DNA of 32,000 nt, from the NCBI RefSeq assembly GCF_001997385.1, contig NZ_CP019633.1:300001-332000 (forward strand), given 5' to 3'. The notes beneath the pieces are model-generated. The model was not told the origin of the DNA. It did not search any database and saw only the letters and a list, made by a program, of their open reading frames with translations. Within the stretch, counting starts at the first letter, position 1; every line of letters begins with the position of its first letter. Positions 6,423 to 12,751 of this stretch are shown here, piece by piece. Source of the DNA: Sedimentisphaera cyanobacteriorum. Its GTDB lineage: Bacteria > Planctomycetota > Phycisphaerae > Sedimentisphaerales > Sedimentisphaeraceae. The position numbers and the translations under genes are program-made.

Positions 6423-8135
6423 TTGGAAGAAGAGGAAATTTTTGAGCTTGAATCTGGCGGGGTTCTCAAAGAGGTCGAAGTGGCCTATGAGACCTACGGC
6501 GAGCTCAACGAAGACGGCTCGAATGCTGTTTACATCTGCCATGCGCTTACAGGCGATGCTCATGTTGCCGGCTACAGCTCCAGCGAAGACAGCAAACCCG
6601 GCTGGTGGGACGATATGATCGGACCAGGGAAGTATATCGACACAGAAAAATACTTCGTTATCTGCTCGAATTTTCTCGGCGGCTGCTCGGGCACAACAGG
6701 CCCGTCCTCAATAAATCCCGATACAGGGCTCAAATACGGCCTTGATTTTCCTCTTTTTACTATAAAAGATATGGCACGGGTTCATAAGATGTTTGTCGAT
6801 AAGCTCGGAATTGAAACGCTGCTGTGCGTTATAGGCGGGTCTATGGGCGGAATGCATGCAATGAGAATAGCCATAGATTATCCTGAAAAGGTCAAAAGCG
6901 TTGTCCTTATTGCCACTACCTCCCATCTGGGTGCCCAGGCGATTGCCTTTGATGCAGTTGGGCGTAATGCGATTCTGGCAGATAGACAGTTCAACAGCGG
7001 GCATTATCCGGAGGATAAAGGTCCGGACAGGGGGCTTGGGATTGCCCGAATGATAGGCCATATCACCTATCTTTCTGAAGAAGGGATGAGGCGGAAATTC
7101 GGCCGCGCGCTTCGAAACTCAGACGACTACAGCTACGATTTCGACCCTGAATTCTCTGTAGAGACATACCTTGACCATCAGGGAAGAAGGTTTGTTGAGC
7201 GTTTTGATGCGAACTCCTATCTCTACATTACAAGAGCTATGGATTATTTCGACCTCGAAAAGGAGTTTGGCTCTCTGGAAAAGGCATTCGCCTCGGTTAA
7301 GGCAAGGTTTTTTGTGGTAAGCTATTCGAGCGACTGGCTCTTCCCGCCGGCACACTCGCAGGAGATCGTTGATGCCCTTGTATCTAATGCAAAGGATGTT
7401 TCATACAGCAATATCAACTCGCATCACGGACATGATGCCTTCTTGATTGAAACTGATGTTATCGGCCCGTACATAGAAAATTTCGTTTGGGCTACATCCC
7501 ATAAGATTACAGATTCATTTGCATACACAAGAAACAGTGAGCCGGGCAGGTCTGATTATGAAATCATTCAAAACCAGTTTGTTGTAAGCGGGGATGTTTT
7601 AGACCTCGGCTGCGGGGAAGGCGAACTGCTTGCAAGGCTCAGAGATGTAAACAAATGCGATGTTTTGGGTATTGATATTGATACCGAATCTATAGGTTCG
7701 TGCCTGAAGAAGGGTGTCCCCGCTGTTTGGGCGGACATAGAGGATTCGCTTGAGTCTTTCGCAGACGGGCAGTTTGATTATGTTGTGCTCTCGAAAACAC
7801 TGCAGACAACCAAACGTCCCAAAGAACTGCTCAAGGAGATTGTGCGAATCGGGAGAAAGGCCGTGATTACATTTCCGAATTTCGCCCATATCAGCTGCAG
7901 GGCTCAGCTCTTTTTTACAGGCAGAGCGCCTACTACAAGCTCTCTGCCCTACAGCTGGTACGACAGCCCAAATGTCCATTTCTTCTCGATGAAGGATTTT
8001 GAAAAACTCTGCCGCAGTGTTAATATCCGTATTGAGCAGAGAATAGTCCCAAGAACCGCAGGGACGGGCATTGTCAATTTTCTGCCTAATCTTTTCGGAA
8101 GAGAGGCGATTTATCTTATCAGCAGGGAATCTTGA
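6423..8135 (+). CDS. metX: Fused homoserine O-acetyltransferase (MetX) and MetW-like methyltransferase-fold domain
   Basis: The N-terminal ~365 aa match the MetX alpha/beta hydrolase: AYETYGELN, NAVYICHALTGDAHVAGY, GWWDDMIGPGK, nucleophile elbow GGSMGGM. The C-terminal ~195 aa (from about nt 7545) match MetW: DLGCGEGELL, FDYVVLSKTLQ, PNFAH. The track start (TTG 6423) is probably too far downstream; see the finding on the start codon. Confidence 0.9.
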   Translation: MEEEEIFELESGGVLKEVEVAYETYGELNEDGSNAVYICHALTGDAHVAGYSSSEDSKPGWWDDMIGPGKYIDTEKYFVICSNFLGGCSGTTGPSSINPDTGLKYGLDFPLFTIKDMARVHKMFVDKLGIETLLCVIGGSMGGMHAMRIAIDYPEKVKSVVLIATTSHLGAQAIAFDAVGRNAILADRQFNSGHYPEDKGPDRGLGIARMIGHITYLSEEGMRRKFGRALRNSDDYSYDFDPEFSVETYLDHQGRRFVERFDANSYLYITRAMDYFDLEKEFGSLEKAFASVKARFFVVSYSSDWLFPPAHSQEIVDALVSNAKDVSYSNINSHHGHDAFLIETDVIGPYIENFVWATSHKITDSFAYTRNSEPGRSDYEIIQNQFVVSGDVLDLGCGEGELLARLRDVNKCDVLGIDIDTESIGSCLKKGVPAVWADIEDSLESFADGQFDYVVLSKTLQTTKRPKELLKEIVRIGRKAVITFPNFAHISCRAQLFFTGRAPTTSSLPYSWYDSPNVHFFSMKDFEKLCRSVNIRIEQRIVPRTAGTGIVNFLPNLFGREAIYLISRES

Positions 8136-8275: not shown

Positions 8276-10630
8276 ATGAACCAGAGAGTGAGGAAATTAA
8301 GGCAGGAGAGTATAAACACTAAGCCTTTCATCTGTCCCGAGCGTGCAGAGCTTGTAACAGACTTCTACATCAAGGAGCTTGACGAAAAGCTTTCTGCACC
8401 ACTGGCACGAGCAAGGATGTTTGAATATATCCTCGCAAACAAAAGCATACACATCTGCGATGGTGAGCTGATAGTAGGGGAAAGAGGGTCCGGCCCGAAA
8501 GCCGTTTCTACCTACCCTGAAATATGCTGTCACGGTCTTGAAGACCTCGAGATTATGAGCACACGGGAAAAGACCCAGTATGCAGTGTCTGATAAGGTTA
8601 AGAAGGTTTACAAAGAGCGAATCATCCCCTTCTGGCATGGCAGAACAATGCGTGAGGAGGTTTTCGAGCGTGCAAATGAAGACTGGATAAAGGCCTTTGA
8701 TGCGGGCGTTTTTACTGAGTTTATGGAGCAGAGAAGCCCCGGCCATGCCATCCTTGACGGCAAAATATATTCCCGCGGTCTCAATGATTTCAAGGAAGAG
8801 ATCAGAGATAGCATTTACGAGATTGAGTCTGACAGCGAGGCGAAAGAAAAGCATCAGGAACTCGAGGCTATGGCAGTAGCGGCAGATGCCCTGATTATGT
8901 TTGCAGGAAGATATGCAGACTGCGCAGCAGAGCTTGCAAAGAATGAAAGCAGCAGTGTAAGAAAAGAACAGCTGCTCGAGATTGAAAGAATTTGCAGGAA
9001 AGTGCCAGCTTCAAAGCCCGATACCTTCCGCGAAGCCCTGCAGATGTACTGGTTCATCCATCTGGGCGTAATCATCGAGACAAACCCGTGGGATTCATAC
9101 AACCCCGGCAGGATAGACCAGCACCTTATGCCATTCTATGAGAAAGAAATTCAAGCAGGCGAGCTTACAAAAGAACAGGCTGTTGAGCTTCTTGAATGCT
9201 TCTGGATAAAATTCAACAACCATCCCGCTCCGCCTAAAGTTGGCATTACGGAAGAACAGAGCGGCACATACACCGATTTTTCTCTGATTAATGTTGGCGG
9301 CGTCCTCCCCGAGGACGGTTCTGATGCTGTTAATGAGCTCTCGTATATAATTTTGGATGTAGTGGAAGAAATGAAGCTCACCCAGCCCAGCTCCTGCATT
9401 CAGCTCAGCGAGAAAAATCCCGACAAATTCCTCGAAAGAGCCTGCAAGGTGATTTGCGAGGGGTTCGGCCAGCCCAGCGTGTTCAATACCGACGTTATAA
9501 TAAAAGAAATGCTCAATGCAGGAAAATCTCTTGAAGACGCAAGAAACGGAGGCCCTAGCGGCTGTGTTACGGTAAGCGCTTTCGGGAAGGAAAGCTGCAT
9601 TCTCACCGGCTACTGCAATATGCCTAAAATCTTCGAGATTACCATAAATGCCGGCGTTGACCCGCGTACAGGAAATCAGGTGGGGCTGAAAACAAAACCT
9701 CCAGAACAGATCGAAAGCTTCGATGAATTTCTCGAGCAGTATAAGCGGCAGCTGAACTACTTTATAGATTTAAAGATAGAGCTTAACAGCGAGATAGAAA
9801 GGCTTTATGCAGAGCGTATGCCGGTTCCGTTTATGTCTCTGCTTGTTGATGACTGCATTAATCGAGGCCTCGACTACCATAACGGAGGCCCGAGATACAA
9901 CCCCACTTACATACAGGGCGTTGGTCTTGGCTCAGCGGCTGATGCGTTTGCAGGCCTGAAGTACAACGTGTTCGATAAGAAGAACGTATCTTTCAAAGAG
10001 CTTGCCGAAGCCTTAAAGAGCAACTTCAAGGATAATGAATATCTCCGTCAGCAGCTGCTGAACAAAACCCCTAAATACGGCAACGACGACGAATATGCCG
10101 ACCAGATCGCCAAGAATGTCTTCCAGATGTACTATGATGCATTAGACGGAAAGCCAAATACAAAGGGCGGGTTATACAAGGTAAACCTTCTGCCCACAAC
10201 ATCTCATATTTATTTCGGCTCCGTAACAGGGGCCTTGCCTTCAGGCAGGAAAGCAGGAGAGCCGCTCTCAGACGGTATTTCTCCCACGCAGGGAGCCGAT
10301 CATGTTGGGCCTACGGGAGTTATAAAAAGCGCAGCCTGTTTCGATCATTCGCTCACAGGCGGTACGCTTCTGAATATGAAGTTCAGTCCGGAGCTTATGA
10401 AGGACAAAGGAGTAAAGGCGCTTGCAGACCTTGTGCGGTCTTATTTTAAGCTGGGCGGACATCATATCCAGTTTAATGTTGTGGACAAAGAAACGCTTCT
10501 TGATGCCCAGCAGAATCCCGAAAAGCATAAAGACCTGATTGTCAGAGTAGCAGGATACAGCGATTATTTTGTTGTATTGGGACGCGATCTGCAAAACGAG
10601 ATTATAAAACGCACTGAACAGGCAGTTTGA
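8276..10630 (+). CDS. Glycyl-radical enzyme, PFL2/glycerol-dehydratase-like family, substrate unknown
   Basis: 784-aa ORF. The C-terminal glycyl-radical fingerprint is IVRVAGYSDYF (Gly760, nt 10553-10555). The putative thiyl-radical loop is GGPSGCVTV (Cys430, nt 9563-9565). The N-terminus RVRKLRQESINTKPFICPERAELVTDFY is typical of the PFL2 family. Confidence 0.88.
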   Translation: MNQRVRKLRQESINTKPFICPERAELVTDFYIKELDEKLSAPLARARMFEYILANKSIHICDGELIVGERGSGPKAVSTYPEICCHGLEDLEIMSTREKTQYAVSDKVKKVYKERIIPFWHGRTMREEVFERANEDWIKAFDAGVFTEFMEQRSPGHAILDGKIYSRGLNDFKEEIRDSIYEIESDSEAKEKHQELEAMAVAADALIMFAGRYADCAAELAKNESSSVRKEQLLEIERICRKVPASKPDTFREALQMYWFIHLGVIIETNPWDSYNPGRIDQHLMPFYEKEIQAGELTKEQAVELLECFWIKFNNHPAPPKVGITEEQSGTYTDFSLINVGGVLPEDGSDAVNELSYIILDVVEEMKLTQPSSCIQLSEKNPDKFLERACKVICEGFGQPSVFNTDVIIKEMLNAGKSLEDARNGGPSGCVTVSAFGKESCILTGYCNMPKIFEITINAGVDPRTGNQVGLKTKPPEQIESFDEFLEQYKRQLNYFIDLKIELNSEIERLYAERMPVPFMSLLVDDCINRGLDYHNGGPRYNPTYIQGVGLGSAADAFAGLKYNVFDKKNVSFKELAEALKSNFKDNEYLRQQLLNKTPKYGNDDEYADQIAKNVFQMYYDALDGKPNTKGGLYKVNLLPTTSHIYFGSVTGALPSGRKAGEPLSDGISPTQGADHVGPTGVIKSAACFDHSLTGGTLLNMKFSPELMKDKGVKALADLVRSYFKLGGHHIQFNVVDKETLLDAQQNPEKHKDLIVRVAGYSDYFVVLGRDLQNEIIKRTEQAV

Positions 10631-10767
10631 ATGTATTTTAAAGAAAGAAAAACTTTTGTTAGCAGCTTATTTTTTAGTAATAACTTGTGGTAAAAACTGT
10701 TTCTTATATAATATTTTTGTGCTAACGCGGTTAATCAGCATTAATGTTACGCTTATTGGAGATTAAA

Positions 10768-11685
10768 ATGAAACTGTTCCGTATTGTTTTTACAGCGTCG
10801 TTTGTTTGTGCTGCAGTCCTTCTTACAGGCTGCCAAACAGCAGAATTCACAATGAATTATCAGCCAGGTGAGGTTGATACATTCAAGGTGCTTCAGGAAA
10901 CCACAAAGGAGGTGAGCTTTGAACAGCCTTCAAAAGAAAAGAGCAAGCTCGACAGAAATGTAGGAAGAGTTGAGATGGTTTTCGACCAGAAGGTTGATTC
11001 AGTTAAGCCTGACGGCACGGCAATCCTTGATATTACTGTAAAAGAGCTTGTGTTCTTCTCGAAAAACAGCAAAGGGGTTAATGTAGATTTCAACAGCAAA
11101 GAGGACAAAGGCGGGACGCTCGCCTCTCTTATTGGTGAGTCTTACAAAATATCCATGTCCCCCGACGGTACTGTTGAAGTGGTGGACAAAGAAGACATTA
11201 TGAAAAAATGCCGCAGCAGAGAGGCCAAAACAATCTTCAAGGATGAATACATTATCAAAAGGCATACCATAAGAGGCATTCCAAAGCCCGGAACTGCTGT
11301 AAGCAAAGGGAAGTCTTGGGTTAGGTATTCTTCAAGCCCGAAGGGTGCTCTCGATGCAAAGGCGTTTAAGAAAACTTATAATGTTAAACAGATGAAAGAC
11401 GGCACCGCTCACGTAAAAATGACCGGCTCGCAGACTAATAAAGAAATAGAAGGTCTCGATGTTGGTTCAGGTTCTATGGGCTTTATGGCAAACATTTTCG
11501 ACACCAAAGACACCTTGGAAGGCAGTATGGTTTACGATACAGAAACCGGCGAGGTGGTTAAGTCTGAGGAGCATTTGGTAAGCGAGCACGTTGCAGCTGA
11601 GCAGCCCAAAGACGGCGATCCTGAAAAAGGCCCTGATGTTTTAACTATGAAATTTATTCATAAGTACTCATTTGAAAAGATTTGA
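10768..11685 (+). CDS. Lipoprotein, function unknown (paralog of the next gene)
   Basis: The ORF track starts at 10744. I prefer the ATG at 10768, which has GGAG 6 nt upstream. The signal and lipobox are MKLFRIVFTASFVCAAVLLTGC. The rest is beta-rich and Lys/Glu-rich, with no recognisable enzymatic motif. Confidence 0.7.
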   Translation: MKLFRIVFTASFVCAAVLLTGCQTAEFTMNYQPGEVDTFKVLQETTKEVSFEQPSKEKSKLDRNVGRVEMVFDQKVDSVKPDGTAILDITVKELVFFSKNSKGVNVDFNSKEDKGGTLASLIGESYKISMSPDGTVEVVDKEDIMKKCRSREAKTIFKDEYIIKRHTIRGIPKPGTAVSKGKSWVRYSSSPKGALDAKAFKKTYNVKQMKDGTAHVKMTGSQTNKEIEGLDVGSGSMGFMANIFDTKDTLEGSMVYDTETGEVVKSEEHLVSEHVAAEQPKDGDPEKGPDVLTMKFIHKYSFEKI

Positions 11686-11735: not shown

Positions 11736-11767
11736 AATAATAGCGATATAATTTGAGGAGAGCTAAC

Positions 11768-12751
11768 TTGAAAAGAGTCTTACTGTTTTCAATTGCTGCA
11801 GCGGCAGTTATTATTTCCGGATGCAGCAGTGAAAAGACCTATCTTTCCCTCGGCTTTGACAGGCAGGAAATGGTTTACAACTTTGTGTCCCAGCGGGATA
11901 TTACGCTCACTCTTGAAGGAAGCAAATCCGGCAAGAAGCAGAATGCCTCTGAAAAGCTAAATATGCAGATTGCATACAAACCAGTGGAAGTTGATGAGCT
12001 GGGCAGCACTGTTCTCGAGGCGGAATGCAGGAATGTAAGCGTTAGACGCAGCTCTTTTACCGGCAAAAAAAGCAGTTCTGACCCGCTTGAGGTGCTTGAA
12101 GGGCAGAAGTGGGAAATAAAGATTAACTCCGCAGGCGAGATTGAAGACTATTCAGGCCTTCAGAATGCCCTTGCAAAGGCCGGAAAGCAGGCTATTAAAG
12201 AAAGCGGGAAACGCCGCATTAAAGACCCCGATATGATTCTCGATTTCGCCGCAACGCAGTGGTCTATGTGGAATGCTGTGGCAAGTGCAAACAAGAAATC
12301 TTTCGGTATATCGCCCGGCCAGCAGTGGGAATCGCTGCTTATGGTTCCTTTCGCTGTGGGAATCCCCGCGGAGAGAATCGTTACCTACAGCCTGCCTGCT
12401 GATATGCAGCCTGAAGATGAAAACACAATGGTGATAAAAAGCAGCTATCAGCTCAGCACATACAAAGAGACAGAAGACGGGAAGCTGAAATTTAAACCGT
12501 CAATTGAGCCGCGCCCAAAGCCTTATGAAGGCTCCTTCCAAACTAAAGGTATGTTCGGGTTTCTGAGAAATTACAAGCCACTGAGCCTTGAAGGCGGGGG
12601 AAAAACCGTTTACGACCAGCTCCAAGGCGTTCTTGTTAGCGAAACGCAAGAGTATGATATGCTGATGGAGGCGGGATTTATGATTCCGCTTGGAGACAGC
12701 GTGCCGAAATTGGAAGTGCATCAGAAGATAACAGTTGAACTGGCAGAATGA
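11768..12751 (+). CDS. Lipoprotein, function unknown (paralog of the preceding gene)
   Basis: The track starts at TTG 11753. I prefer TTG 11768, preceded by GAGGAG. The signal and lipobox are (M)KRVLLFSIAAAAVIISGC. Block-wise similarity to the previous lipoprotein includes LASLIGESYKISMSPDGTVEVV vs LEVLEGQKWEIKINSAGEIEDY. The stop overlaps the HIT gene start (ATGA). Confidence 0.7.
   Translation: MKRVLLFSIAAAAVIISGCSSEKTYLSLGFDRQEMVYNFVSQRDITLTLEGSKSGKKQNASEKLNMQIAYKPVEVDELGSTVLEAECRNVSVRRSSFTGKKSSSDPLEVLEGQKWEIKINSAGEIEDYSGLQNALAKAGKQAIKESGKRRIKDPDMILDFAATQWSMWNAVASANKKSFGISPGQQWESLLMVPFAVGIPAERIVTYSLPADMQPEDENTMVIKSSYQLSTYKETEDGKLKFKPSIEPRPKPYEGSFQTKGMFGFLRNYKPLSLEGGGKTVYDQLQGVLVSETQEYDMLMEAGFMIPLGDSVPKLEVHQKITVELAE

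Follow-up and report, generated by a model that had tools for sequence, protein, structure and literature searches.

A HypD-family glycyl radical enzyme from Sedimentisphaera cyanobacteriorum in which threonine takes the place of the Cys+2 glutamate

The stretch of DNA analyzed here, called the window in the following, comprises 32,000 nucleotides from Sedimentisphaera cyanobacteriorum (positions 300001-332000 of one 2.95-Mb contig, NZ_CP019633.1) and encodes a glycyl radical enzyme of 784 amino acids (P0001) as a stop-free open reading frame (Table 1). The protein contains the Pfam domains PFL-like (E 3.7e-218) and Gly_radical (E 8.5e-34) as well as the fingerprint RVAGYS with Gly760. Its Cys loop reads GGPSGCVTVSAF and holds one cysteine only, Cys430, with Thr432 two residues further on. 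A sequence-only reading had already described the open reading frame, the fingerprint, the GCVT loop and the ACG codon for the threonine, and translation, Pfam domains, alignment and codon all agree with that description. The same reading had called the loop non-canonical, and rightly so: according to a review from 2026, the Cys-x-Glu motif is retained by all characterized eliminases and isomerases of the superfamily (PMC13450708). The glutamate two residues past the catalytic cysteine, a hallmark of 1,2-eliminases, is absent from the enzyme studied here.

Table 1. Positions of the enzyme gene, its key codons and an upstream site within the window
Feature	Position	Strand	Basis
Coding sequence of the HypD-like glycyl radical enzyme, 784 amino acids, P0001	8276..10630	+	Open reading frame, Pfam, NCBIfam, PDB match, AlphaFold model, dN/dS
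Cys430 codon, thiyl-radical cysteine (C. difficile HypD Cys434)	9563..9565	+	Alignment to 6vxc; invariant in 181 of 181 HypD-clade sequences aligned
Thr432 codon, ACG; the counterpart in C. difficile HypD is Glu436, the Cys+2 glutamate	9569..9571	+	Alignment, codon read
Pro427 codon (Cys-3), part of the loop background that goes with Thr	9554..9556	+	Loop combinations P-T-S, P-E-S and [A/S/T]-E-G
Ser434 codon (Cys+4; Gly in canonical HypD), same loop background as Pro427	9575..9577	+	Loop comparison
Gly760 codon, glycyl-radical site in RVAGYS (C. difficile HypD Gly765)	10553..10555	+	Alignment, conservation
Putative promoter-like site: CTGAAA, 16 nt, TATAAT; 10 of 12 consensus matches; 64 nt before the start codon	8185..8212	+	Consensus scan

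The enzyme belongs to the family of HypD, the oxygen-sensitive trans-4-hydroxy-L-proline dehydratase. The NCBIfam equivalog model for this function, NF043068, covers positions 1-783 of the 784 residues and scores 1176.2 bits against a cut-off of 1100, whereas all other NCBIfam models for glycyl radical enzymes stay far below their thresholds (148.8 bits versus 994.2 in the case of the pyruvate formate-lyase (PFL) model TIGR01255). HypD from C. difficile is the best match in the PDB (6vxc, E 1.9e-289; 52% identity across the full-length alignment), with glycerol dehydratase far behind (E 3.7e-162), and the AlphaFold model of the enzyme (predicted local distance difference test score, pLDDT, 92.6) likewise finds its best PDB match in 6vxc_A (template modelling (TM) score 0.98, root-mean-square deviation 1.2 Å). 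When the HypD positions identified by Backman et al. (PMC7077986) as hydroxyproline-binding or essential are mapped onto the protein, identical residues are found for F152, R156, H160, D278, K326, S334, D339, F340, C434, Y450, T645 and G765, corresponding to F149, R153, H157, D273, K321, S329, D334, F335, C430, Y446, T641 and G760. All twelve are invariant in 133 aligned sequences with threonine at Cys+2 (Thr-type) and in 48 with glutamate (Glu-type). Cys430 is thus confirmed by alignment as the counterpart of the catalytic cysteine, and Glu436, which aligns to Thr432, is the only one of the mapped residues that differs. The inference that the enzyme stands unplaced therefore does not hold: it falls into a characterized clade, and this placement, just as the conservation of the active-site residues, is established directly by model scores, structural match and alignment. 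The public names of clade members are inconsistent (P0005 included) and comprise benzylsuccinate synthase alpha subunit, formate C-acetyltransferase, glycyl radical protein and HypD; judged by family scores the first two are wrong. A search against a library clustered at 50% identity gives no resolution within the family, since the entire HypD family forms one cluster there.

Thr432 is genuine and under purifying selection. The ratio of nonsynonymous to synonymous substitution rates (dN/dS) against the orthologue of the sister species, a protein with 92% identity, amounts to 0.049, and within the genus, for which three genomes were compared, the threonine codon is ACG here, ACA in the sister species and ACC in the third genome. 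GCVT is found in 109 and GCVE in 11 of the 120 database proteins closest to the enzyme (63-69% identical), the best named match being the protein from Anaerohalosphaera lusitana. All four threonine codons, ACG, ACA, ACC and ACT, and both glutamate codons, GAA and GAG, occur across the sequences. One copy of the gene is present in 76 of 201 sampled genomes of the same order and two copies in two genomes only, and the genera of the order hold either the Thr-type or the Glu-type as single-copy alternatives. Thr-type genes also appear in metagenome-assembled genomes labelled Thorarchaeota (including the closed chromosome CP070761.1), Promethearchaeota, 'Hermod' archaeon, Theionarchaea and Aminicenantes, and the archaeal Thr-type sequences form one all-Thr clade. 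In the literature, neither a Cys-x-Thr variant of HypD nor a HypD from Planctomycetota or Asgard archaea was found described.

Threonine and glutamate have replaced each other many times. Trees of 184, 75 and 256 sequences, calculated with the loop columns removed, need nine Thr/Glu changes, at least eight of which are forced by well-supported branches, and monophyly of the Thr-type sequences is rejected by the approximately unbiased (AU) test (log-likelihood difference 833, p 0.0005). Threonine was seen exclusively on a loop background with proline at Cys-3 and serine at Cys+4 (one sequence with alanine), and this Pro/Ser background constitutes one clade of 191 leaves with a support of 100. 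Its loop, GGPSGCV[T/E][VI]S, differs from the GG[A/S/T]SGCVE[T/V/A/S]G of the canonical HypD loops sampled. Parsimony for this single site places one change from Glu to Thr at the base of the Pro/Ser clade, after which the residue would have returned to Glu six times and changed to Thr another two times. Each interchange takes two adjacent base substitutions, and the one-step intermediates, Ala and Lys, were never seen at the position. In Thr/Glu pairs with 81-88% identity, the loop is nearly the same apart from the difference at Cys+2. Recombination in the region of the Cys loop was considered as the source of the scattered distribution and rejected, because such close pairs exhibit no local drop in identity and their loop flanks are nearly identical.

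A glycyl radical enzyme depends on its activase, and the sequence-only reading had described the present one as an orphan. Within the window this is correct in so far as a six-frame scan for CxxxCxxC detected no radical S-adenosylmethionine (SAM) gene; the matches are interrupted by stop codons, lie in frames of 18-42 codons or, in one case, belong to an antisense frame within the gene of the enzyme. The orphan status itself does not stand, as a probable HypD-type activase (P0272) is encoded just outside, at genome positions 336278-337231 on the plus strand. Its gene starts 25,648 bp past the stop codon of the enzyme gene and 4,278 bp past the end of the window. The protein matches TIGR02494 with 332 bits (cut-off 174), possesses an intact CPLRCRWC cluster motif as well as ferredoxin-type motifs, and is 47-48% identical to activases adjoining HypD-like genes in relatives, compared with 27% for the PflA type. 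The genome encodes two PFL-like enzymes and two activases altogether; besides the present enzyme there is a genuine PflB (TIGR01255, 1153 bits), and the other activase is PflA (TIGR02493, 287 bits). In 121 of 140 related loci, Thr-type and Glu-type alike, the activase gene is located directly upstream of the enzyme gene on the same strand. The two genes are 31 kb apart in the sister species, in the same relative order as here, and reside on different contigs in a third genome of the genus. Since the activase is present elsewhere in the genome and adjacent to the enzyme in most related loci, and since the split is common to the genus, P0272 is probably the original partner, which a secondary rearrangement moved away in this genus, and the partner is not missing. 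Unlike most bacterial loci, Asgard archaeal loci (L114, L115, L120, L122, L123, L125, L143) contain no activase within 2-3 kb upstream.

The genes for PflB and PflA (L002, L011; genome 1455025-1456785 and 2792873-2793562, both on the minus strand) are unlinked as well and lie about 1.3 Mb apart, so that both enzyme-activase pairs of the organism are split. The activase gene P0272 is solitary (genome 336278-342215, L003); its same-strand neighbors encode a secreted protein of 808 amino acids and proteins resembling ribulokinase and L-ribulose-5-phosphate epimerase. This placement beside ribulokinase-like genes may carry a meaning, for which arabinosylated hydroxyproline glycoproteins are one example.

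The gene context in relatives was derived from 60 fetched stretches of up to 20 kb, in which open reading frames were called and clustered. Several genes recur on the downstream side of the activase and enzyme genes, namely those for an M24 Xaa-Pro peptidase, for an M2/M3-like peptidase, for a sodium:solute symporter that resembles PutP most and for dipeptidyl peptidase IV (DPP-IV). Such neighbors were seen at 9 of 25 Thr-type loci and at 4 of 30 Glu-type loci, a basal Glu-type lineage among the latter; the loci are interrelated and the counts are not independent. This context, common to both types, agrees with a supply of proline or hydroxyproline that is liberated from peptides and taken up. 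In the genome of S. cyanobacteriorum, DPP-IV, an M24 peptidase and ProC are encoded away from the enzyme gene. The immediate surroundings are those of housekeeping genes, as had been noted before: trpD, trpG, trpE and a gene for a HEAT-repeat protein precede a metX-metW fusion (6423-8135 on the plus strand, 570 amino acids with a MetX alpha/beta hydrolase and a MetW domain) directly upstream of the enzyme gene, and two proteins without NCBIfam match (10744-11685 and 11753-12751, both on the plus strand; one with a weak DUF6263 match) follow downstream, then a HIT protein and an HD phosphohydrolase. Whether orthologues keep the two downstream proteins had been put forward as a check; because both are absent from the neighbors conserved in relatives' loci, they are probably unrelated to the enzyme. 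An Rfam scan detected no RNA element near the enzyme gene.

Taken together, we consider it probable, at roughly 0.65, that the protein is a working hydroxyproline dehydratase, orthologous to HypD, that functions without the Cys+2 glutamate. Substrate, activity and the role of Thr432 are here derived by homology. The separately encoded activase would install the radical on Gly760, from where it would move to Cys430. The latter would then take a hydrogen atom from C5 of hydroxyproline, the 4-hydroxyl would depart as water and pyrroline-5-carboxylate would be formed, which the ProC encoded in the genome could reduce to proline. Within the monophyletic GGPSGCV[T/E][VI]S subfamily the Cys+2 glutamate would be dispensable. 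It is proposed that Thr432 acts along with His157 and Asp273, both of them retained, to hold, position and protonate the leaving hydroxyl, and the Pro/Ser loop background would permit threonine in place of glutamate. Such a mechanism is plausible because the authors of the HypD structure paper assign Glu436 a role in positioning the leaving hydroxyl and not that of a general base (PMC7077986).

Several observations weigh against this explanation. The E436Q variant of C. difficile HypD is activated yet inactive (PMC7077986), and an enzyme working without the carboxylate therefore needs compensation. A residue perfectly linked to Thr was sought as compensator and none was found; Leu623, Val636 and Pro543 tend to go with Thr, but this is suggestive only (p about 0.06). 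Leu623 is the best co-varying candidate, accompanying Thr in about five of eight independent pairs and never going the opposite way. The best specific model for the activase P0272 is that of the HypD activase, NF043069, albeit with 311 bits, under the cut-off of 425. In S. cyanobacteriorum itself the enzyme gene has neither a peptidase nor a transporter gene beside it, and cultured relatives are described as sugar fermenters (PMC11266412).

Alternatively, the Thr-type enzymes could have shifted to another substrate or reaction, be it a different isomer of hydroxyproline, a proline substituted otherwise at position 4 or a different reaction outcome, with Thr/Glu acting as a specificity switch of one residue that has been thrown repeatedly. 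Glu436 touches the leaving hydroxyl and its exchange for glutamine abolishes activity (PMC7077986), and threonine takes away a charge and frees volume right at the leaving-group site. Moreover, the restriction to Thr and Glu, without the one-step intermediates on the two-base path from ACR to GAR, looks like selection between two discrete states, and the fold is retunable, as HplG, HpyG and HpzG act on other forms of hydroxyproline (PMC13450708). However, these three enzymes differ from the present one at many pocket residues, are only about 31-33% identical to it and keep the glutamate (PMC13450708). The residues for the carboxylate, the amine and the ring of hydroxyproline are invariant in both types. 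Genomes hold one type and almost never both, as expected of equivalents and not of enzymes with distinct jobs. We therefore regard a shift in substrate or reaction as rather unlikely. The sequence-only reading had likewise suggested a different substrate or mechanism, which is possible but less likely because gene context is shared between the types and Thr and Glu interchange repeatedly between close orthologues. Somewhat more doubtful still is the specific version in which the residue, flipped at least eight times, switches substrate or chemistry such that the Thr-types of sediment Planctomycetota and Asgard archaea act on another proline derivative or yield another outcome.

It is very improbable that the protein is an inactive remnant or has adopted a non-catalytic role after losing an essential residue and its adjacent activase. 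The dead E436Q variant of the model enzyme (PMC7077986), the activase gene that does not adjoin and the lack of pathway genes in the neighborhood would agree with decay, but the dN/dS value is that of a constrained gene, the remaining catalytic residues do not vary in about 150 Thr-type proteins of bacterial and archaeal origin, the activase is intact in its CxxxCxxC and ferredoxin-type motifs, and most members of a large clade carry Thr. That an ordinary Cys-x-Glu gene was misread in sequencing or assembly can practically be dismissed, and nothing was found in favor of it. The residue recurs, with other codons, in the sister species and the third genome of the genus, in most of the closest homologues (109 of 120) and in more than 150 independent sequences, and two base changes would be required to produce it.

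Cys-x-Glu has been regarded as a feature of every glycyl radical eliminase, and in the one HypD studied the glutamate proved essential. The sequences described here constitute a large, selected natural clade lacking this residue, in which Thr and Glu have been exchanged repeatedly among close orthologues. The clade thus offers a way to learn the real role of the glutamate in HypD and the kind of loop, here one that combines Pro at Cys-3 with Ser at Cys+4, that renders it dispensable. Should the enzyme indeed dehydrate hydroxyproline, anaerobic use of this compound would extend to strictly fermentative sediment Planctomycetota and to Asgard archaea, and we found no earlier report for either group.

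Among known systems, PflB shares the superfamily of the enzyme from S. cyanobacteriorum; PFL features a Cys-Cys pair and the present loop a single cysteine. The other eliminases and isomerases of the PFL2 group, i.e. glycerol and propanediol dehydratases, CutC, IslA, HpyG, HpzG, HplG, YbiW and PflD, share the fold (TM 0.92-0.96) as well as the Gly loop and the Cys loop. They are, however, only 30-37% identical, possess other pocket residues, are represented by NCBIfam models that score far below cut-off, and all retain the Cys-x-Glu motif (PMC13450708) that is missing here. HypD from C. difficile (PDB 6VXC/6VXE) resembles the enzyme in fold, in the glycyl-radical and thiyl-cysteine sites and in the residues that contact the carboxylate (S334, Y450, T645), the amine (D278, D339) and the ring (F152, F340) of the substrate, as well as in H160, K326 and R156. 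It differs in bearing Glu436 where threonine is present here, and the canonical HypD loops sampled carry Ala, Ser or Thr at Cys-3 and Gly at Cys+4 instead of Pro and Ser. In addition, the activase gene is 25.6 kb away and no proC adjoins in S. cyanobacteriorum, whereas the activase gene of relatives is found directly upstream. The closest comparison is provided by the Glu-type HypD orthologues of the same order (e.g. in L072, L091 and P0077), which are 81-88% identical to the nearest Thr-type proteins and display the same GGPSGCVx[VI]S background. They carry Glu at Cys+2 and tend to have Val or Ile instead of Leu at position 623, yet they are encoded in the same activase-enzyme pair and, in several cases, next to the same peptidase and transporter genes.

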